Positions 32,216 to 57,723 of a stretch of DNA of 64,000 nucleotides are shown here, piece by piece. The stretch is from the IMG/VR virus record IMGVR_UViG_3300046744_000223, positions 32,001-96,000 of that record; one strand, written 5' to 3'. Source of the DNA: a virus. The notes under the pieces are model-generated. The model was not told the DNA's origin. It did not search any database and worked only from the letters and a program-made list of their open reading frames with translations. Position 1 is the first letter of the stretch; every line of letters begins with the position of its first letter. Both the position numbers and the translations under genes were made by a program.

Positions 32216-33481
32216 TTAAAACGGATTAGAAATATCTTCGGTTTCAACATTGAACAAGTTATCATCTTGAGGAATTTCACCTAAGAACTTCTGAACATAT
32301 TGTTTCATATAAACTCTTTCAGATTCAGCCCCACCACTTTGGTCGAACATTGGATAAACAGCCAACTCTGCAGCCTCACTTAGTGAGAACCCATCGTAGA
32401 GTAGAGACCCAATCTCAACTGCGGTCCGTGTAGATAGTGCGTTAGATAACTTTGGAGACTCAGACATCAACTCGTTACGAGTCATGGAAGTCACCTCAGC
32501 AACATTATTTAGAATCTCAATATCAACCGATGGGTACATCATTTGAAGTAGTTGAGTTTCCTCATCACGAGTCAAAGTATCCATTTCAATTGGAATGAAT
32601 CGGTCAAGAATTGCCCGGTCAAGAGAACGTGTAGCGGTGTACTCATTACCAATGTTAGCAGAGGCGATGAACGAAACACCATCGGCGACCTTAACAACAG
32701 GAGCGTCAGCAGCCTCATCGAGACGTAAGTAACGTTGACCTTGGTCAAGGACGGTCATTAGAATGTTGTGAGCCTCAGGATGGGCCCGAGTCAACTCATC
32801 AAGAACAACCACGGTATTTGGAGTGGATATCGCCTTGACAAATGGTGATGGGTTAAACACCGTACCTTTCTTGGTTTCAAACTGAGTGTTCCCAATCAAT
32901 GTGGTTCGTGGGTCTTGGGTAGCTCCCAAGTTAATTACAAAGGTGTTGTAACCTTCAATTGAATTGGCAGCAGCCTTAGCAGCCATAGTCTTACCACAAC
33001 CGGCTGGACCAGTCATCATAATATTCTTACCACGAATGATGTTACGAATAAGAAGTTTCCACTTCAAAGGATTCATGAACAACATCTGAGGTTTAAGACC
33101 TTCAGACTCCTCGTGAATAAACTTGAGGACATCATCTGACATCTCAACTGAAATTGGTGTTGATTGTGATTTTGGTTTATACTCCAATGATAACAACCCA
33201 CCATTTGGATTGTTGAAGTTACCAACAGGCTCAAGGTTATCTTCAACCTTTGATGATGGAACACGTGTATGTCCTAACTCACCATCGGACAATCGACCAA
33301 CGACACGAACCTTCCATCCCCACTTAGCAGGATTGTTGGCGGCCGCTCTGGCACGTTTGTAAAGAGAAGAACCCTTCTCGTTTAATTCCTCAATAAGGAA
33401 GTTAACTCCATTGGAGTCTTGAAACATTAGTTGATTGTCTACTTCTACAATCTTACCGAAAACTGATTTTTGTGACTTCAT
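32216..33481 (-). CDS. MoxR/CbbQ/NorQ-type AAA+ ATPase
   Basis: Walker A GPAGCGKT, Walker B VVLDELTR, SANIG, LDRAILDRF, STR; start moved to ATG 33481. Confidence 0.9.
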   Translation of the reverse strand: MKSQKSVFGKIVEVDNQLMFQDSNGVNFLIEELNEKGSSLYKRARAAANNPAKWGWKVRVVGRLSDGELGHTRVPSSKVEDNLEPVGNFNNPNGGLLSLEYKPKSQSTPISVEMSDDVLKFIHEESEGLKPQMLFMNPLKWKLLIRNIIRGKNIMMTGPAGCGKTMAAKAAANSIEGYNTFVINLGATQDPRTTLIGNTQFETKKGTVFNPSPFVKAISTPNTVVVLDELTRAHPEAHNILMTVLDQGQRYLRLDEAADAPVVKVADGVSFIASANIGNEYTATRSLDRAILDRFIPIEMDTLTRDEETQLLQMMYPSVDIEILNNVAEVTSMTRNELMSESPKLSNALSTRTAVEIGSLLYDGFSLSEAAELAVYPMFDQSGGAESERVYMKQYVQKFLGEIPQDDNLFNVETEDISNPF

Positions 33482-33535
33482 ATTTTTATATTTCTCAATT
33501 ATTACTCTGTAAATATAGTGATTTAGGTTCACAAC

Positions 33536-33855
33536 TCCAAACTTTTAATGTTAAGTTTATGTTAACTTTTCATATGATAAAACCGATTGTAATAACCAAC
33601 CTCACCTACATTAACATCATTCAATGGGGTGTACCCATTATACTGATTGGTATCATACAACATTCGTTCAATCATTGTACACATACCTGCTTTGAACTTA
33701 TCATCGCAATACTCATCGGTACGTTGGAGTTGGTTGTTAACGTAATCTAAAACTTTTTTTACTTCAATTGTCTTTCTCATATCTCTCAATCTTACAGTAC
33801 TAAAGTACGACATTTATTTTATAAATCCAAACTTTTAATGTTAAGTTTATGTTAA
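33536..33855. repeat. Exact 30-bp direct repeat TCCAAACTTTTAATGTTAAGTTTATGTTAA
   Basis: Copies at 33536-33565 and 33826-33855 flank one small ORF. Confidence 0.9.
33562..33780 (-). CDS. Hypothetical protein flanked by identical 30-bp promoter repeats
   Basis: ATG 33780 follows the GAGAGAT leader. Confidence 0.6.
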   Translation of the reverse strand: MRKTIEVKKVLDYVNNQLQRTDEYCDDKFKAGMCTMIERMLYDTNQYNGYTPLNDVNVGEVGYYNRFYHMKS

Positions 33856-33866
33856 AGTTATCAACA

Positions 33867-35972
33867 TTAAATAGCAACTTCAAACTTCTTATTTAAGGTC
33901 TTAGCCAGTTGGGTCATATTATTGGTGTCAATAAATTCAGCATCGTTTCCATACATTTGTTTAAACCCATCAGTACCATGCCCCTCCCATTCGGATATGA
34001 AATATGACAACACCTTAACTCCAGCCTTTCTCATTTTAGACACTTGCTCTGCCGTATGTTTTCTGGCGGCTTGACCCCCATAAGAAATCTCTTGGTTATC
34101 AAAACCAGGGAAACCATCTGAGAAGTTTATTAGGTATGTGTCCACACCTGATTTGGTTTTAGTAATCTCATTCATCACAGCCTCATAACACAACCCCTCA
34201 GGAGTAGTACCATCGGATTGAATGTGTTTAAATAATTGTTGAATCTTTGAGAACTTATCTTTACGACTATCATATGCAATCAACATTAGTGGTTGACACT
34301 TACTCCAATTGCCTGGTGAGTAGTAGATACCTCGGTACGAAATAACAACATCAATGTTGTCAGTCATCGAAGCCGCCTTAGCAATAGCCACAGCAGCGGT
34401 TTGTGTACTATTCCATTTTGACCCATTCATTGATGAACTCGCGTCAATTGAAATATGTAATACAATCGGTGTAGTGTTACTTATTAAAGTTTGTTCAAAG
34501 ATATCGAAGTTACCAAACCCAATCTCATGAATCATACGACTACTCAACTTACCACTCTTCATTCGTGGGGTAGTGAGGACACGTTCCTCATTACGAGTCT
34601 TGAGTTTCTTACCAAGAATAGTACCCAACTGAATACCCTTCTTGATATACTTATCACTACTGCTGGTTCTGTATTCCGAATTAGTCAACATACCCACCAT
34701 ATCCGAATCAATTAACCCACGGGTTAAATTGTTAATAATGTAGGTTTGAACTCCATTGGAACCAACCGACCAATTACTTTTGGCGAATCCCTTACCAGTA
34801 ACCTCAGACTTGATATCAGCCTTATCTAATTGGTCAATCTTATTCTTGTCAGACTTGGAAATCTTCTTCTTCTTAACATCACCTTCTTGAAACTCTTTTT
34901 GTTTTTCAATAGCGTTATCCAACATTTTCTTTTGGCGGTCTGAGAGTGGTTCATATTGACCACCAGCTCCATTAGGATTACCTTCACCACTTGGAGACCC
35001 ACCTTGTGTAGACTCATCATCTGAATCTGAACCATCATCGGAGTCACTTGGTGATGTTTCACCATTTCCATTAGAACTCATACCATCATCAGAAGTGGGG
35101 TTATTCTCAGTGTCACCACTCATAGGTGACTCACCATTTTCACTATCACCACCTTGTGGTTCACCATCACCATTAGACGATGAGCCAGTATCACTACCGG
35201 CAACCTCAAGTTGTTTTTCAACAATCATAAGAATCTCACCAGCCACATCCATAGCTTCCCACGATGATTTTAGTCGTGATATGTTACGTAGATTAAGTAC
35301 ATTCCAAATCTCACGAAGACCTTTAAGAGCATCGAGGTCACGATTCTCGTTAGTCAAGTTGATGATACGGAACATATAAGAATCCCAATCCTCAGTACGA
35401 TACTCAGAAGACTCAAGACCTTTGTCAATTACCTTAGAGTGAAAGTACTTATCGTACATAGACTCGTAGTAACCACGATAGCCAGGCGCCGTAGTGTAAA
35501 CGTGATTATCAATACGTCTATCTTCAACGTAGTTAAGAAGTGATTTTAGATTGTTACTAACTATGTGACTAAGTTCATCAGTCTCACATTGGTAACGATT
35601 AGCCATCCACTCTTTATCAATAGTAGTGGGTAGGTAACCACGATTCATTTCCGTAAGTGTTGTAAAGTCAGTCAGTGCGATGTGAGAACCCTCGTGGAGA
35701 GCCAGACCAACAACAGGGTCGAACTCTTTATCATCTAACTTAGCCGATATAACAACCTCAGTACCATCAGTATAGGATTGGTCTCCACGACCATCAAAGG
35801 TCACAGGAATTGACTTGCCAGTTACGATGGAAACGAAGTTAGCGATACTACGTTTGTAAGACATTAACTTCATTAAGTCATTTGACTTCTTTTCTACTGA
35901 AGAAATCTCAGTATCATCGAAGATTGACTCATCAAGCCAGAACGATGAATAGGATAGATTATTTTTTGACAT
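33867..35972 (-). CDS. VWA-domain protein with N-terminal HEXXH metallopeptidase-like domain (CobT-like MoxR partner)
   Basis: LALHEGSH, NYVEDRRID, acidic S/G/D linker, MIDAS IDASSSM...GTTPE...FSDG. Confidence 0.85.
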   Translation of the reverse strand: MSKNNLSYSSFWLDESIFDDTEISSVEKKSNDLMKLMSYKRSIANFVSIVTGKSIPVTFDGRGDQSYTDGTEVVISAKLDDKEFDPVVGLALHEGSHIALTDFTTLTEMNRGYLPTTIDKEWMANRYQCETDELSHIVSNNLKSLLNYVEDRRIDNHVYTTAPGYRGYYESMYDKYFHSKVIDKGLESSEYRTEDWDSYMFRIINLTNENRDLDALKGLREIWNVLNLRNISRLKSSWEAMDVAGEILMIVEKQLEVAGSDTGSSSNGDGEPQGGDSENGESPMSGDTENNPTSDDGMSSNGNGETSPSDSDDGSDSDDESTQGGSPSGEGNPNGAGGQYEPLSDRQKKMLDNAIEKQKEFQEGDVKKKKISKSDKNKIDQLDKADIKSEVTGKGFAKSNWSVGSNGVQTYIINNLTRGLIDSDMVGMLTNSEYRTSSSDKYIKKGIQLGTILGKKLKTRNEERVLTTPRMKSGKLSSRMIHEIGFGNFDIFEQTLISNTTPIVLHISIDASSSMNGSKWNSTQTAAVAIAKAASMTDNIDVVISYRGIYYSPGNWSKCQPLMLIAYDSRKDKFSKIQQLFKHIQSDGTTPEGLCYEAVMNEITKTKSGVDTYLINFSDGFPGFDNQEISYGGQAARKHTAEQVSKMRKAGVKVLSYFISEWEGHGTDGFKQMYGNDAEFIDTNNMTQLAKTLNKKFEVAI

Positions 35973-36034
35973 ACTTCTCATTTCTTATTACTATACTAAA
36001 GTAGTGAATATATTCGATATAAACAAGTTCCTAA

Positions 36035-36575: not shown

Positions 36576-36962
36576 CTATTTTTTAAATTTACCACGAACT
36601 CTATCCGATATAGGTATTGAATCACCATTTTCATCTACCCTTACGAATTTTATGTTTGTAGATAGTATAACTGATTGATTACCTGAGTATACGTTATGTG
36701 CTCTTGCTTCCATATACAATGTAACCGAAGTGGTCCCTATCTCAGCAACACTACCATATATCTTAATTAACTGACCCTCACGTGCTGGTCGTTTAAATAA
36801 ACACTCGTCTATCTTAATAGTAACGACTCGTGGAGTGTCACATACTTGAGATGCAAACGCAGCCCCAGCTGCATCTAACCAAGCAAGTAACTTACCACCA
36901 AATAGATTAGCATGAAATCCTAAATCAGATTTCTTAACTGGATGTGTTGATATTAATTCCAT
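36576..36962 (-). CDS. Acyl-CoA thioesterase (hotdog fold)
   Basis: DLGFHANLFGGKLLAWLD, F..P...G, GTTSVT, FVRVDENG. Confidence 0.88.
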   Translation of the reverse strand: MELISTHPVKKSDLGFHANLFGGKLLAWLDAAGAAFASQVCDTPRVVTIKIDECLFKRPAREGQLIKIYGSVAEIGTTSVTLYMEARAHNVYSGNQSVILSTNIKFVRVDENGDSIPISDRVRGKFKK

Positions 36963-37312
36963 TATAACTTACCATCTTTTTTCATTTGTTCTCGAATCTT
37001 AGTAGCTGATATGTCGGATACCTCTTGTGGTGGCACGTGTTCATTTATGTCATAACCCACACCTCTACCATAGTTAACCGATTGTATGTCAGGAATAATA
37101 ACAGTTTTAATTCTACCTTGAGTTATCAAGTCGTAGTGAATGTGACCCAATCTCATTTGTATACGTTTAGCGGTCCATGGGTTATTCTCATCAACCTCCA
37201 CATCTCGTATAGCAAGACAAACGTTATTACCTTTATTTAACTCTTGGTCAATTAACCATTGATGACCTTCGTGCCATGGTTGCCACCTACCTATGAATAG
37301 TGAATACTTCAT
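36962..37312 (-). CDS. Small HIGH-family nucleotidyltransferase (cytidylyltransferase-like)
   Basis: IGRWQPWHEGH and ISATKIR. Confidence 0.85.
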   Translation of the reverse strand: MKYSLFIGRWQPWHEGHQWLIDQELNKGNNVCLAIRDVEVDENNPWTAKRIQMRLGHIHYDLITQGRIKTVIIPDIQSVNYGRGVGYDINEHVPPQEVSDISATKIREQMKKDGKL

Positions 37313-37721
37313 TTAATGATTCAGTAACTGATTTGTTTGTTGTGTTAATTTTAATATCAGAGTCGTTGAATTCAAAATCAGACGCAAAGTAATCTTCACG
37401 ACCCCTCGTTTCAGTTGTATGTACGTAATAGTAATTAATATCTAAATCCCTTAGCTCATCACGTATATCATTGTAAGGAGCAACAACTGATACGAATACA
37501 TCGTACCCTTTGTATTCTAAGAATCTTGCTATATTATTAACATTACGTAAGTTATTCAACCTACCTTCTTTTGAGTAATCTTTATTATTAAAGATAGTTC
37601 TCATTTCATCACCATCAATATGTATGTGTTTCTTAAACTCCAATTGAGGTGAGTTACTTATCATAGCTTTAGCCAGTGTGGTCTTACCACTCCCTGGCTG
37701 TCCATAAAACCAATGTATCAT
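37287..37721 (-). CDS. cysC: Adenylylsulfate (APS) kinase-like
   Basis: WFYGQPGSGKTT, IDGDEMR, YSKEGR..N, VSVVAPY...R. Confidence 0.82.
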   Translation of the reverse strand: MIHWFYGQPGSGKTTLAKAMISNSPQLEFKKHIHIDGDEMRTIFNNKDYSKEGRLNNLRNVNNIARFLEYKGYDVFVSVVAPYNDIRDELRDLDINYYYVHTTETRGREDYFASDFEFNDSDIKINTTNKSVTESLNEVFTIHR

Positions 37722-37728
37722 ATTCTTA

Positions 37729-38013
37729 TTAAAGTGGTGGTCCTAATAACCACTCTTTTATTTCTTCTCTTGCTGAGTTATCTATTTGGTCTTCCCAAGC
37801 ATCACTCCATTCTTTGTGTAAGTAATCTCTATGATGTGATAACAAGTCATCACCCCTATCAGTGTATGCAATTATACCCTTCAATACAGCGTATGACTTC
37901 TTCTTCTCAGTTACATCCCAATCAGTATTTTCTATAAGAGTATACATCATCAGAATTATATCAGATACGTCTTTCTTATTCCAAAGTTTAGATATGTGTT
38001 CTTGCTTGTTCAT
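37729..38013 (-). CDS. Hypothetical protein
   Basis: Start moved to ATG 38013 to avoid overlap with tRNA-Gly. Confidence 0.55.
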   Translation of the reverse strand: MNKQEHISKLWNKKDVSDIILMMYTLIENTDWDVTEKKKSYAVLKGIIAYTDRGDDLLSHHRDYLHKEWSDAWEDQIDNSAREEIKEWLLGPPL

Positions 38014-38025
38014 TAAGAATCTTAG

Positions 38026-38098
38026 AGCGAAAGACGAGATTCGAACTCGCGACCCCCACCTTGGCAAGGTGATGCTCTACCAGCTGAGCTACTTTCGC
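38026..38098 (-). tRNA. tRNA-Gly(GCC), canonical
   Basis: GCGAAAG TA GCTC AGCTGGTA GAGC A TCACC TTGCCAA GGTGG GGGTC GCGAG TTCGAAT CTCGT CTTTCGC T; CCA not encoded. Confidence 0.96.
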
Positions 38099-38104
38099 TT
38101 ATTG

Positions 38105-38176
38105 AGCGGAAGGGTGGCTCCGCCCCACCATCTTTGAACTGGATGTTCAACGAGTTTCTCTTAACTCCTCTTCCGC
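38105..38176 (-). tRNA. Non-canonical tRNA-Gly(TCC)-like RNA, copy 1
   Basis: GCGGAAG AG GAGT TAAGAGAA ACTC G TTGAA CATCCAG TTCAA AGAT GGTGG GGCGGAG CCACC CTTCCGC T; perfect cloverleaf with atypical loops. Confidence 0.85.
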
Positions 38177-38244
38177 ATTATAGAGAATGATAACCCGTAG
38201 CTTAAATTGAGCGGCCTTATCCCAATCTTTAACCATTCTCTTTG

Positions 38245-38316
38245 AGCGGGAGGTTGGTACTGCCCCAACACCTTCTATCTGGATGATAGACGACTTTCTT
38301 TTAAGTCTTCTCCCGC
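38245..38316 (-). tRNA. Non-canonical tRNA-Gly(TCC)-like RNA, copy 2
   Basis: GCGGGAG AA GACT TAAAAGAA AGTC G TCTAT CATCCAG ATAGA AGGT GTTGG GGCAGTA CCAAC CTCCCGC T; perfect cloverleaf with atypical loops. Confidence 0.85.
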
Positions 38317-38327
38317 GTTATTGTTTA

Positions 38328-38361
38328 TACAATATACAACAATTTTTTGAATAAAACAAAT
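38328..38361 (-). promoter_or_regulatory. Bacteroidota-type promoter driving the three Gly tRNA genes
   Basis: TTTG...TATATTGT immediately upstream of 38316. Confidence 0.65.
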
Positions 38362-38389
38362 AAAATATAAAATACTTGACTGCGAATTG

Positions 38390-38474
38390 CGGAAGATATA
38401 GGATTCGAACCTATGGTACATTGCTGTACGCTGGTTTTCAAGACCAGTGCATTCGACCACTCTGCCAATCTTCC
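38390..38474 (-). tRNA. tRNA-Ser(TGA)
   Basis: GGAAGAT acceptor, CTGGT CTTGAAA ACCAG anticodon arm, long variable arm, GGTTCGAATCC. Confidence 0.95.
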
Positions 38475-38483
38475 TAACGGATA

Positions 38484-38741
38484 TTATCCCTTTAATACTT
38501 GTTTGTCGTTATCATCAAACTCACCATACTCTTGGCCAAAGTTATCACGTAGTGTAGATAGTTTATCAGTAGCATCAGTCAATTGTGATACTAACAAATC
38601 AATCTCTTCAGTATGTTGTGGGTGTTCTCCGATAGCTACCGGATTTTCAAAGTAGATAGAGATACGTGCTCTTGAATCCATAATCTCTGCCGTGTACTTT
38701 GATTCCAATGCTTGGAATAATCTTCTTGAAATTTTACTCAT
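38484..38741 (-). CDS. Hypothetical phage protein
   Basis: ENPVAIGEHP motif of a small family common in large phages; TATTTATA upstream. Confidence 0.65.
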   Translation of the reverse strand: MSKISRRLFQALESKYTAEIMDSRARISIYFENPVAIGEHPQHTEEIDLLVSQLTDATDKLSTLRDNFGQEYGEFDDNDKQVLKG

Positions 38742-38795
38742 AACGTTTCTTTTTTAATCTTATATAAATAGTCTACCCAATTTTAGTAAACTTAG

Positions 38796-38866
38796 TTATC
38801 CGACAAGGACTCGAACCTTGAATGTCTGTACCAAAAACAGAAGTGTTGCCATTACACCATCGGACA
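38796..38866 (-). tRNA. tRNA-Gln(TTG)
   Basis: TGTCCGA...TCTGT TTTTGGT ACAGA...CAAGG TTCGAGT CCTTG TCGGATA A. Confidence 0.93.
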
Positions 38867-38870
38867 ATTG

Positions 38871-38942
38871 TACTCGGTAGGGGAATCGAACCCCTCTTTT
38901 ATGGATGAAAACCATAGGTCCTAACCGATAGACGAACCGAGC
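38871..38942 (-). tRNA. tRNA-Glu(TTC)
   Basis: GCTCGGT...TATGG TTTTCAT CCATA...AGGGG TTCGATT CCCCT ACCGAGT A. Confidence 0.94.
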
Positions 38943-38947
38943 AAATA

Positions 38948-39031
38948 AGAGTAGTCGTTAGGATACGGAGTCCTATTAATAGTAACTTACATTTACCCCT
39001 GCAGAGGTGTACTAAACTTTTTACCCACTCT
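38948..39031 (-). ncRNA. Putative structured RNA / degenerate tRNA-like element
   Basis: Terminal 7-bp stem AGAGTGG/CTACTCT; internal hairpins ACCTC-TGCA-GGGGT and TAGGA-CTCCGTA-TCCTA; fills the gap between two tRNAs. Confidence 0.4.
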
Positions 39032-39034
39032 ATG

Positions 39035-39108
39035 TGAACCCGACAGGATTCGAACCTGTGACCGTCTGCTTAGAAGGCAGATGCTCTATCCAACTGAGCT
39101 ACGAGTCC
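39035..39108 (-). tRNA. tRNA-Arg(TCT)
   Basis: GGACTCG TA GCTC AGTTGGATA GAGC A TCTGC CTTCTAA GCAGA...ACAGG TTCGAAT CCTGT CGGGTTC A. Confidence 0.96.
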
Positions 39109-55439: not shown

Positions 55440-56156
55440 TTATTTTTTATTATCCAAACTTTTCTTATCTTCTAATAAGATTTGTTCATCTTTTTTTGGT
55501 TTAAGGTCTGGTGGTAAATCCGATTCTTCAACATCCCAACCAGTTTGCTTTTTTATGGTACGTAATACGTCCAACCTATCATCACGTGTGCCCGTACCCC
55601 AATACCATGCTAATGTTGATTTTTTATGTGATATACTTTCTTCTAGCTTTTTTAGATTCTTCAAAAGAATATCTTCGTCATCATCATCAAAATCATATTC
55701 TACATCATATTTACCAGCAAAATTAAGTAAAGTAGCTAAATCTAACTCATTAAATGCGTTGGACACTCTTTGAAACTCGGATTCAGTACCACCCTTATCA
55801 GGATGTGTGGCTATTGCTACTTTTTTATATAACTTCTTAATCCTATCAGGTCTATTTTTAATCTCAACGAGTCGTTTCTTCTTTTTTTCAGATTTCTCTC
55901 GTTCTACTCGTTTATTATCCTCTGCCATATCTTCGAACGACATACTTGGGGCTTCGTGTCGAACCTCTCCAGTTTCTTCATTTACCCAAATATGTCGTTC
56001 TTTAGCAGTAGGTGTACCTTTTTTAGGTTTTTTGTAGTATTTTTCGAAATAAAATTCAAAATCTGATACATACTCATCGAAAGACTCAATGGTATCCTCT
56101 TCTTCAAGTTTTAAATACTCATACTTTAAGTTATATTTTTTAAGCTTCCGATTCAC
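55440..56156 (-). CDS. J-domain (DnaJ-like) protein
   Basis: IKKLYKKVAIATHPDKGG...FQRVSNAF. Confidence 0.8.
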   Translation of the reverse strand: MNRKLKKYNLKYEYLKLEEEDTIESFDEYVSDFEFYFEKYYKKPKKGTPTAKERHIWVNEETGEVRHEAPSMSFEDMAEDNKRVEREKSEKKKKRLVEIKNRPDRIKKLYKKVAIATHPDKGGTESEFQRVSNAFNELDLATLLNFAGKYDVEYDFDDDDEDILLKNLKKLEESISHKKSTLAWYWGTGTRDDRLDVLRTIKKQTGWDVEESDLPPDLKPKKDEQILLEDKKSLDNKK

Positions 56157-57723
56157 TATCCTCTACCTCATTGACAATCATACATTCCGTGGTTAGTAAT
56201 GTAGATGCTACTGAGACAGCTTTTTCAAGTGCGGTTCGTGTTACTTTGGTTGGGTCAATTACACCCACTTCTAACATATCACACCATTGTTCAGTCACTA
56301 CATTATAACCATAAGTAGTTTGAGTTTCACCTTCTGGTGTATAAGTTAAACCTGCATTTTCTAAAATAGAATTAAAAGGTGAGTAACAGGCAGAACATAC
56401 AATATTGAATCCAGTTTCTTGGTCGGCTGATAATCTATCAACACCCATATGTATTCTATCACTTGCATGGATTAGAGCCGAACCCCCACCTGGCACAATA
56501 CCTTCTTCAACTGCAGCTTTTGTAGCAAGTAGAGCATCATCAATTCTATCTTTCTTTTCCTTCATCTCGATTTCAGATTCAGCACCTACTCTGAGAACTG
56601 CAACACCACCACTTAATTTAGATAATCGTTTGTGTAGTTTTTCTTTCTCATAGTCTGAACTTGATTCTTCGATTTCATTCTTGATTTGGTCAATACGGAG
56701 TTTGATATCATCCGATTCACCAGCACCACCAATGATTACTGATTTAGATTTACTAACCACTACTTTGTCAGCTGACCCTAAGTCATCCATTGTGATATCT
56801 TCCAACTCTTTACCAACACCACCAAACAAAGTAGCGCCGGTTAGAGCAGACATATCTCTCAACATCTCACTACGTTCGTTACCGAAGCCAGGTGCTTTGA
56901 TAGCAACACATTTTAAGGTTTGACGTGCTGAATTAACTACCATTGTAGCTAGCGCTTGCCCATCGACTTCTTGAGCAATTACTACAATTGCCTGATTCTT
57001 ACTTGATACACCCTCAAGGATACCAACGATGTCATCCATTTCTGAAATACGACCATCGTACATAAGAATCATAGGGTCTTCTAATTCAGAAGTCAATTTG
57101 GTTTGATTGTTAATGAAATAATGTGATAGGTATCCTTGTTCAAATTCCAATCCCTCTACAATAGTCAGTTCGTCATCACTTGAATTGCCCTCTTCAACAG
57201 TAATTACCCCATCACGACCAACTTGGTCCATTGCATCGGCAATCATAGAACCAATCACCGAATCACCATTTGCTGAGATTGTTGCTACCTGTTTGATTTG
57301 GTCGTTAGTTTCTACTTTAGTTGAAATGGTTTCAACAAGATTATTAACAATACCTTTTACTGCAGTATCCATCCCACGTTTCAATTCAATTGGGTTAGCT
57401 CCCTTTTCAATTGCATCCATACCTTTTTTAAAGATATCACGTGCAAGTACAGTTGAGGTAGTTGTCCCATCACCTGCGTTGTCAGCAGTTTGTTGAGATG
57501 CTTCTTTGATTACCTTAGCACCCAAGTTTTTGGTTGGGTCTGTAAATTCAATAGACTTAGCTACTGTAACCCCATCCTTTGTAATATGTGGTGTTGTATC
57601 AGTTTCAATAATCACGTTACGACCACGTGGTCCTAATGTAACTACAACTGCATCTGCTAATGCATCTACACCTTCTAAGAGTTTCTCTCTCGATGTCTTT
57701 CCGTAAAATACTTCTTTACCCAT
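56140..57723 (-). CDS. groL: Chaperonin GroEL
   Basis: VTLGPRGRNV, ITKDGVTVA, AGDGTTT, KAPGFG, GIVPGGG, IDPTKVTR; lacks the GGM tail. Confidence 0.97.
   Translation of the reverse strand: MGKEVFYGKTSREKLLEGVDALADAVVVTLGPRGRNVIIETDTTPHITKDGVTVAKSIEFTDPTKNLGAKVIKEASQQTADNAGDGTTTSTVLARDIFKKGMDAIEKGANPIELKRGMDTAVKGIVNNLVETISTKVETNDQIKQVATISANGDSVIGSMIADAMDQVGRDGVITVEEGNSSDDELTIVEGLEFEQGYLSHYFINNQTKLTSELEDPMILMYDGRISEMDDIVGILEGVSSKNQAIVVIAQEVDGQALATMVVNSARQTLKCVAIKAPGFGNERSEMLRDMSALTGATLFGGVGKELEDITMDDLGSADKVVVSKSKSVIIGGAGESDDIKLRIDQIKNEIEESSSDYEKEKLHKRLSKLSGGVAVLRVGAESEIEMKEKKDRIDDALLATKAAVEEGIVPGGGSALIHASDRIHMGVDRLSADQETGFNIVCSACYSPFNSILENAGLTYTPEGETQTTYGYNVVTEQWCDMLEVGVIDPTKVTRTALEKAVSVASTLLTTECMIVNEVEDSESEA

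Follow-up and report, generated by a model that had tools for sequence, protein, structure and literature searches.

Rewired tRNA-Gly-like RNAs in a T4-like phage belong to a covarying family that accompanies Mom genes: candidate glycyl carriers for DNA momylation

The stretch of DNA analyzed here (the window, 64,000 nucleotides in length) covers bases 32001-96000 of the 172,940-bp IMG/VR record IMGVR_UViG_3300046744_000223, and its tRNA cluster includes two genes for non-canonical tRNA-Gly-like RNAs, both encoded on the minus strand. Copy A (38245..38316), the upstream paralog, has the T-stem GUUGG/CCAAC and scores 101.6 bits with our covariance model R1; copy B (38105..38176), the downstream paralog, has the T-stem GGUGG/CCACC and scores 96.7 bits. 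Each forms a 72-nt cloverleaf, whose acceptor stem measures 7 bp, D stem 4 bp, and anticodon and T stems 5 bp each; the D loop has eight nucleotides, and the anticodon and T loops have seven. Two nucleotides join the acceptor stem to the D stem, one nucleotide joins the D stem to the anticodon stem, a variable region of 4 nt precedes the T stem, and the discriminator is U. RNAfold returns this cloverleaf for either copy, both as the minimum free energy and as the centroid structure, with z-scores of -3.1 and -4.7 relative to shuffled sequences. The anticodon loop of both reads CAUCCAG, with A33 and a possible C32-G38 pair. After the discriminator U, the next three nucleotides are C-(A/U)-A in the window (38102-38104 and 38242-38244) and in all relatives; the CCA end is encoded only in the contig L064, which is described below. 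Neither copy was called by ARAGORN, whose calls in the cluster are the five canonical tRNAs only, and the Rfam model RF00005 matched neither of them, even at E<=10.

An earlier note on this DNA had placed two 72-nt elements at exactly these positions and had described the differences between them as compensatory in all four stems; direct reading of the minus strand agrees exactly. The departures from canonical tRNA that it listed (A8, U14, A18, the CAUCCAG loop, GGC in the T-loop, G58, U51-A63) were seen in both copies, as were G19 and U73, and the adjacent canonical tRNA-Gly(GCC) does have G51-C63. In full, the T-stem of the phage RNAs begins with G49-C65, U/G50-A/C64 and U51-A63, that of the canonical neighbor with G49-U65, C50-G64 and G51-C63. 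For the dedicated promoter that it proposed at 38328-38361, a sigma-70 scan made no call. A conserved sequence motif (TGTAWAACAAW) directly precedes copy A in many relatives.

Relatives were recovered by degenerate pattern scans of viral contigs and then with model R1. The resulting family comprises 79 full-length copies, i.e. 47 distinct sequences, on approximately 45 viral contigs, 32 of which possess two copies and one of which possesses three. Type A genes (T-stem GUUGG/CCAAC) lie upstream of type B genes (GGUGG/CCACC), with either a gap of 4-5 nt or a structured spacer between them. When the region was compared by blastn with 50,697 phage records, the only matches were canonical tRNAs. 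The covariation alignment contains 52 distinct rows, 47 of them non-canonical copies; 99.5% of its stem cells are paired, 13 of the 21 pairs show changes on both sides, and all 21 stem pairs are maintained across the family. None of 500 shuffles reached the observed value, and slid controls did not come close either. The pairs 4-69 to 7-66 and every pair of the anticodon stem covary freely. Divergence among the relatives is therefore compensatory and not random, the distinction on which the earlier note had let its interpretation depend.

Invariant in all 47 sequences are G1-C72, C2-G71, G3-C70, U73, C35, C36, A37, G10, G45, A44, G19, C56 and G53-C61, and the same holds for the non-canonical nucleotides A8, U14, A18 and G55. 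G54 and G58 are each present in 46 sequences; the sole exception carries U54 together with A58, a case of tertiary covariation. Altogether, about 30 positions do not vary, the non-canonical ones among them, and the rewired core is devoid of U at positions 54, 55, 8, 16, 17 and 20. When the elbow alone was used as a search pattern, the model confirmed no elbow match other than those with glycine identity, which makes the rewired core a peculiarity of tRNA-Gly. Other positions drift: position 33 is A in 29 sequences, U in 16, and C and G in one each; position 34 is U in 38 and A in nine; the C32-G38 pair is exchanged for U32-A38 in one sequence; and the Levitt pair is not conserved, with A at position 48 in 19 of the 47 sequences. 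Two statements of the earlier note thus apply to the window copies but not to the family as a whole, namely that A33 is a shared departure and that A15/U48 is kept.

The glycine identity and consensus set has been defined as G1-C72, C2-G71, U73, C35, C36 and the G10-Y25:G45 triple, and U73 acts in addition as an antideterminant against the hydrolysis of Gly-tRNAGly by DTD (PMC9976931). The invariant set of the family coincides with these experimentally defined elements (PMC9976931), position 25 being C in 46 sequences and U in one. Because glycine identity is invariant while the parts required for decoding are free to vary or damaged, selection appears to maintain chargeability and the L-shape of the molecule, but not decoding.

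More distant T4-like relatives that carry Mom genes (see below) possess tRNA-Gly genes with near-canonical elbows and altered anticodon loops, which have eight nucleotides (CAUUCCAG), six nucleotides (AUUCCA) or G33; for the 6-nt loop, ARAGORN reports a two-base anticodon. These genes (L177, L178, L179, L180, L059:5445-5519 and L176:1501-1573) often stand beside a normal tRNA-Gly(UCC), and they look like stepwise intermediates on the way to the fully rewired form; the intermediate forms are those of L176, L059:5445 and L010:4964. A canonical tRNA-Gly(UCC) and non-canonical copies are found in the same genome in L044, L047 and L176, and sequence comparison with these genes points clearly to descent of the family from a T4-type phage tRNA-Gly(UCC). 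The window's own genome contains no canonical tRNA-Gly(UCC); of its glycine codons, 65% are GGU and 19% GGA.

In phage Mu, Mom uses Gly-tRNAGly as the donor of a glycine that it attaches to adenine N6 in double-stranded DNA, where an on-base rearrangement yields 6-NcmdA (Silva et al. 2026, PMC13219725). The genome from which the window is taken contains two tandem Mom-family genes (PF25680) outside the window, at G000:138780-139460 and 139546-140205 (E = 7e-50 and 3e-44), both of which match PHROG 1384. The paralogs (loci L082 and L083; L082:1426-2220 and L082:2204-2965) overlap slightly, encode 264 and 253 aa, and adjoin a gene for a MazG-like pyrophosphohydrolase; relatives possess two or three Mom genes, one of them a short form of about 212 aa. 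A profile built from five Mom homologs matches the structure of Mu Mom (PDB 8BV8) with E = 1.7e-29. The arginine of an ELxR motif and the serine of an N-x-E-S motif are invariant in the five homologs. At the position of this serine, the 8BV8 crystal chain has an alanine, which would fit the published S124A form; given the inferred offset in numbering, the invariant arginine would be R111. The earlier note had called for a co-occurring GNAT-fold transferase elsewhere in the genome; one is present, yet it is Mom and not a Fem protein. FemAB (PF02388), Acetyltransf_6 (PF13480) and L/F-transferase (PF03588) domains were not found in the window's genome.

The phyletic distribution of the RNAs follows that of Mom in one direction. 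Of the RNA-bearing records, six are at least 90% complete, and each of these has two or three Mom genes, as do records of 87% and 70% completeness; the RNA-bearing fragments without Mom are 10-63% complete. Additional relatives were chosen by their DNA polymerase, blind to both RNA and Mom. Among them, the complete genome G461 (214 kb) carries one RNA together with two Mom genes. G459 (181 kb, 94% complete; polymerase 82% identical) lacks both, and the tRNAs in its syntenic cluster are Arg, Ala and Glu only; neither is present in G462 (74% complete). Both are likewise absent from Microcystis phage Mel-JY01. The closest Mom homolog in a cultured phage (41% identity) belongs to the Polaribacter siphovirus P12002L (L276, NC_028924.1 37305-38015), a likeness which hints that the uncultured T4-like clade may infect marine Flavobacteriia. 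Rewired tRNA-Gly genes were found neither in this phage nor in Pseudomonas phage PA5oct, for which several Mom genes are described in the literature. The search among cultured phages thus yielded no tractable isolate. Hence, the RNA implies Mom in every informative genome, and Mom does not need the RNA.

One further case comes from a different genomic setting. Within 596 Gb of prokaryotic genomes, the sole confirmed match to the family is L064 5197-5268, on a contig of an alphaproteobacterial metagenome-assembled genome. This RNA has the loop UGACCAA and an encoded CCA, and it overlaps the 3' end of a 225-aa Mom-family gene (PF25680, E = 4.5e-44), which is located between genes for an S-adenosylmethionine synthetase and a ParB-methyltransferase and near those for a DnaD-type loader, a sigma factor and a recombinase. 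Judged by its gene content, the contig is phage-like and of a type unrelated to T4. Mom occurs in six of 401 alphaproteobacterial genomes; the RNA stands beside it only in L064, and the other Mom loci have none. A scan of metagenomes for copies with an encoded CCA returned just two short contigs of the same clade, whose flanking open reading frame (ORF; 195-202 aa) is not Mom.

We consider it likely that these RNAs are virus-encoded glycyl carriers for DNA momylation which are kept out of translation. From the sequences we infer that they are charged with glycine, excluded from translation, and used by the Mom proteins of these phages. The central proposal of the earlier note, that the RNAs are selected, chargeable and translation-excluded glycine donors for a tRNA-dependent transferase, finds support in the invariance of glycine identity while positions 33 and 34 drift, in the 6-nt and 8-nt anticodon loops of relatives, and in the coexistence of canonical and non-canonical genes in L044, L047 and L176. 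According to the model that we propose, the RNAs would be transcribed within the phage tRNA cluster and trimmed by host processing. The host would presumably add the CCA end, given that the genes end in the trailer C-(A/U)-A, and host glycyl-tRNA synthetase (GlyRS) would glycylate the RNAs, because every known glycine identity element is invariant; host enzymes are assumed for these steps since neither a CCA-adding enzyme nor a class IIa aminoacyl-tRNA synthetase was found in the window's genome. The rewired core (A8-U14, A18/G55, G54/G58) and the altered anticodon loop may then keep the RNAs from EF-Tu and the ribosome, leaving a private pool of Gly-tRNA as co-substrate for the two Mom-family GNAT enzymes of the phage. 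These enzymes would transfer glycine to adenine N6 in double-stranded phage DNA, where rearrangement to N6-carbamoylmethyl-adenine would block host restriction. A dedicated pool could spare translation while a 173-kb genome is modified in mass, by the same logic as in Staphylococcus.

Several observations weigh against this interpretation. Mu Mom accepts all isoacceptors, and some Mom-bearing phages are without the RNA, so that a dedicated tRNA is not required for momylation; Mom occurs without any tRNA-Gly in the nearly complete relatives G044 and G047 as well as in P12002L and PA5oct. In the T4-like genomes, the Mom genes are located about 68 kb from the RNA genes, and the link between the two therefore depends there on co-occurrence among genomes of shared ancestry. 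Their copy numbers are unequal, with two to three Mom genes and one to three RNAs. Half of the type B relatives have U33, which together with the anticodon UCC could still allow decoding. The pair U51-A63, which the earlier note had set against the EF-Tu-favoring G51-C63, is also found in the canonical phage tRNA-Gly(UCC) of L044; having been inherited from such a gene, it is alone no sign of evasion of EF-Tu, and the contrast between the T-stems of the RNAs and of their canonical neighbor is suggestive only as a mark of low affinity for EF-Tu.

What has to be weighed first is whether the RNAs are working decoders of GGA and GGG with an odd architecture, perhaps reshaped at the elbow and at positions 33 and 34 against a host tRNA nuclease or toxin. 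The anticodon is UCC in most copies, about one third of them have U33, the remaining phage tRNAs read codons ending in A or U, and a canonical tRNA-Gly(UCC) is missing from the window's genome; an arms race might account for the variation at positions 33 and 34 (cf. PMC10264068, PMC11464382). We nevertheless hold this explanation to be unlikely, considering that decoding would suffer from A33, G33 or C33, from loops of six and eight nucleotides and from a possible C32-G38 pair, that canonical UCC genes stand beside the RNAs in three genomes (those listed above), that GGA is a minor glycine codon, and that the other five tRNAs of the phage have canonical elbows. Moreover, decoding would leave the link with Mom unexplained. 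The same gap affects the idea that the RNAs donate no glycine at all but serve as decoys or sponges for a host factor acting on tRNA-Gly, such as a TacT-type acetyltransferase, an anticodon nuclease or GlyRS. The invariant U73 and G71 are determinants of TacT on tRNAGly (PMC9976931), and the RNAs are tRNA-cluster genes of an abundant type. On the other hand, no such host system has been identified, a nuclease decoy needs neither the full set of acceptor-stem identity elements nor C35 and C36, and the tie to Mom in both presence and position would lack an explanation; the sponge and nuclease-decoy alternatives of the earlier note have gained no support, and we regard this class of explanation as quite improbable.

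About as improbable, and perhaps slightly more so, is that the RNAs donate glycine to another, unrecognized transferase acting on the envelope, a virion protein or a glycan, with the link to Mom reflecting shared ancestry only. The genome is rich in glycosyltransferases and encodes a carbamoyltransferase, and most of its small ORFs are uncharacterized; yet the three transferase domains searched for are absent, and adjacency to Mom in the unrelated contig L064 favors Mom as the consumer. Finally, decaying tRNA pseudogenes would account for the silence of the tRNA finders, but hardly for 21 of 21 stem pairs kept by compensation in 47 sequences, for some 30 invariant positions, or for the conserved paired arrangement; this possibility, which the earlier note had also dismissed, has next to no probability left.

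The proposal of glycyl carriers for momylation can be taken one step further, although here we are doubtful. The rewired elbow might serve as a private handle, by which each Mom paralog would favor one of the two phage RNAs, A or B, as its own partner over host tRNAGly; carrier and transferase would then form an orthogonal pair leading from host GlyRS to DNA and leaving the translation pool untouched. The structured spacer between the copies, here termed X (38177..38244, minus strand), might be an accessory part of such a system. It consists of a closing stem of about 10 bp, a hairpin loop AUAAGGCCG and then ACGGGUUAU; across relatives, its parts are the covarying closing stem, with double changes in seven of ten pairs, the motif UUAAAG, the hairpin loop AUAARRCCG, a variable hairpin, and ACCGGUUAU. 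The CCG of the loop could form a pseudoknot with the CGG downstream. Homologs of X were found at 17 loci, almost all of them between the copies or immediately 5' of copy B; in L018 and L040, X occurs with no downstream copy B detected. The spacer is optional, being missing where the copies are 4-5 nt apart, and it has no match in Rfam. At three loci (L036 3877-4325, L031 313-734 and L022 6350-6836), the segment between the copies contains, before X, a canonical tRNA-Thr(UGU) and a small lipoprotein-like ORF with a signal peptide followed by Cys.

The remainder of the locus is made up of the canonical part of the tRNA cluster and its neighbors. A canonical tRNA-Gly(GCC) (38025..38098, minus strand; called by ARAGORN, Rfam 68.3 bits) lies 6 nt downstream of copy B and reads the dominant codon GGU; the rest of the co-oriented cluster (38389..39108, minus strand; ARAGORN, Rfam) consists of Ser(UGA), an 85-aa ORF, Gln(UUG), Glu(UUC) and Arg(UCU). 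The cluster is syntenic in relatives, and Rfam confirms the canonical elbows of these five tRNAs. Two small ORFs without a family match, of 85 aa (38484-38741, minus strand) and 94 aa (37729-38013, minus strand), interrupt or flank the cluster and are kept in 22-23 related loci. Downstream of it (36576-37721, minus strand) are genes for a 4HBT thioesterase (128 aa), a cytidylyltransferase-like protein (116 aa, weak match) and an APS-kinase-like P-loop kinase (144 aa), a trio kept in 12-14 related loci. All five of these neighbors were considered as partners of the RNAs and set aside; they are syntenic, and no functional link emerged. Elsewhere in the window, a CobS/MoxR-like AAA+ ATPase (438 aa) adjoins a 704-aa protein with a faint match to cobalamin biosynthesis (CobT-like; 32216-35981, minus strand; syntenic in 17-22 loci), and a GroEL-type chaperonin of 527 aa is encoded at 56140-57723 (minus strand; PHROG 5725, E = 3e-163). 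The record as a whole is about 90% complete, has a G+C content of 36%, and carries almost all of its genes on one strand; a family B polymerase, tail sheath, portal and GroEL identify the virus as a T4-like myovirus. The source is a large marine phage, whose closest isolate according to the DNA polymerase is Microcystis phage Mel-JY01 (48% identical).

The use of charged tRNA by Mom has been established only recently, and scavenging of host tRNA by the phage was assumed there; the RNAs described here suggest that, in some large environmental phages, the glycine carriers are encoded by the virus itself. In these carriers, the core has been rebuilt by coordinated changes at known tertiary pairs with synthetase identity retained. 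If the proposal is true, the family represents a natural tRNA orthogonal to translation and a viral counterpart of the staphylococcal tRNAGly for cell-wall synthesis; if the private-handle extension were true as well, it would be without known precedent as a tRNA evolved specifically for DNA modification. The RNAs also provide testable substrates of Mom, by which the tRNA features recognized by the enzyme and its competition with EF-Tu can be addressed. Dedicated carriers of this kind may also have gone unnoticed in other genomes, since these genes escape standard tRNA finders.

Among known systems, that of Mu is the closest on the side of the enzyme. All three E. coli tRNAGly isoacceptors work with Mu Mom, whereas mischarged tRNAAla does not (PMC13219725). 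Silva et al. (Nat Commun 2026; bioRxiv 2023) treat tRNA as a scavenged host resource, and neither their discussion nor their section on metagenome mining mentions phage-encoded tRNAs (PMC13219725); the literature on momylation yielded no other report, and no paper was found that describes dedicated phage-encoded glycine tRNAs for DNA modification. The Mom paralogs of the present phage are, like Mu Mom, GNAT enzymes with equivalents of the catalytic arginine and serine (R111, S124), and, by analogy, glycyl-tRNAGly would again be the activated source of glycine for hypermodification of adenine N6. Mu, however, can use any host isoacceptor, and no phage tRNA has been described for it, while the phages studied here combine one to three specialized tRNAGly variants with two to three Mom paralogs.

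On the side of the RNA, the closest parallel is found in Staphylococcus. In the T-loop of its non-proteogenic (NP) tRNAGly(UCC) NP1-3, UGC or UGU replaces UUC; these tRNAs carry few modifications and possess a T-stem of low affinity for EF-Tu. They are used by the Fem transferases FmhB, FemA and FemB, of which the GNAT-fold FmhB prefers them by means of determinants in the D- and T-arms (PMC7826273). Several features are shared with the phage RNAs: both are extra UCC paralogs with GlyRS identity, both have G55 for U55 and lack the usual G18-G19 pair, the phage T-stem likewise departs from the high-affinity set G49-U65 / G51-C63, and proteogenic tRNAGly exists alongside (in the phage, the canonical Gly(GCC) next door). 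In both systems, a GNAT-fold aminoacyl-tRNA transferase would be the consumer of a pool kept apart from translation, which for the phage is a proposal by analogy. The phage RNAs differ in being viral and in having originated independently from a T4-type phage tRNA-Gly; their core is rewired much further (the A8-U14 swap, A18, G54/G58), the anticodon loop is altered too, and the proposed acceptor substrate is DNA adenine instead of lipid II. They are known from sequence, and in the absence of FemAB and Acetyltransf_6 and with an origin in phage tRNA-Gly(UCC), they should be regarded as an analog of the staphylococcal NP tRNAGly and not as a member of that group.

With respect to the canonical T4-type phage tRNA-Gly(UCC), the RNAs have preserved the acceptor stem GCGG.../...CCGCU, the variable loop and T-stem (GAUGGUGG), C32, UCC and A37, and the lack of an encoded CCA. 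ARAGORN calls the canonical form, which has U8, A14, G18-G19, U54-U55-C56, A58 and U33, but not the form of the window and its relatives, which is rewired to A8, U14, A18-G19, G54-G55-C56 and G58. Phage tRNAs that evade nucleases (PMC10264068), including one that neutralizes PARIS (PMC11464382), are similar in that they are viral tRNA variants with anticodon loops unlike those of the host. These, however, are decoders with canonical cores, whereas the RNAs described here combine a rewired core with loops poor for decoding and track a DNA-modification enzyme.

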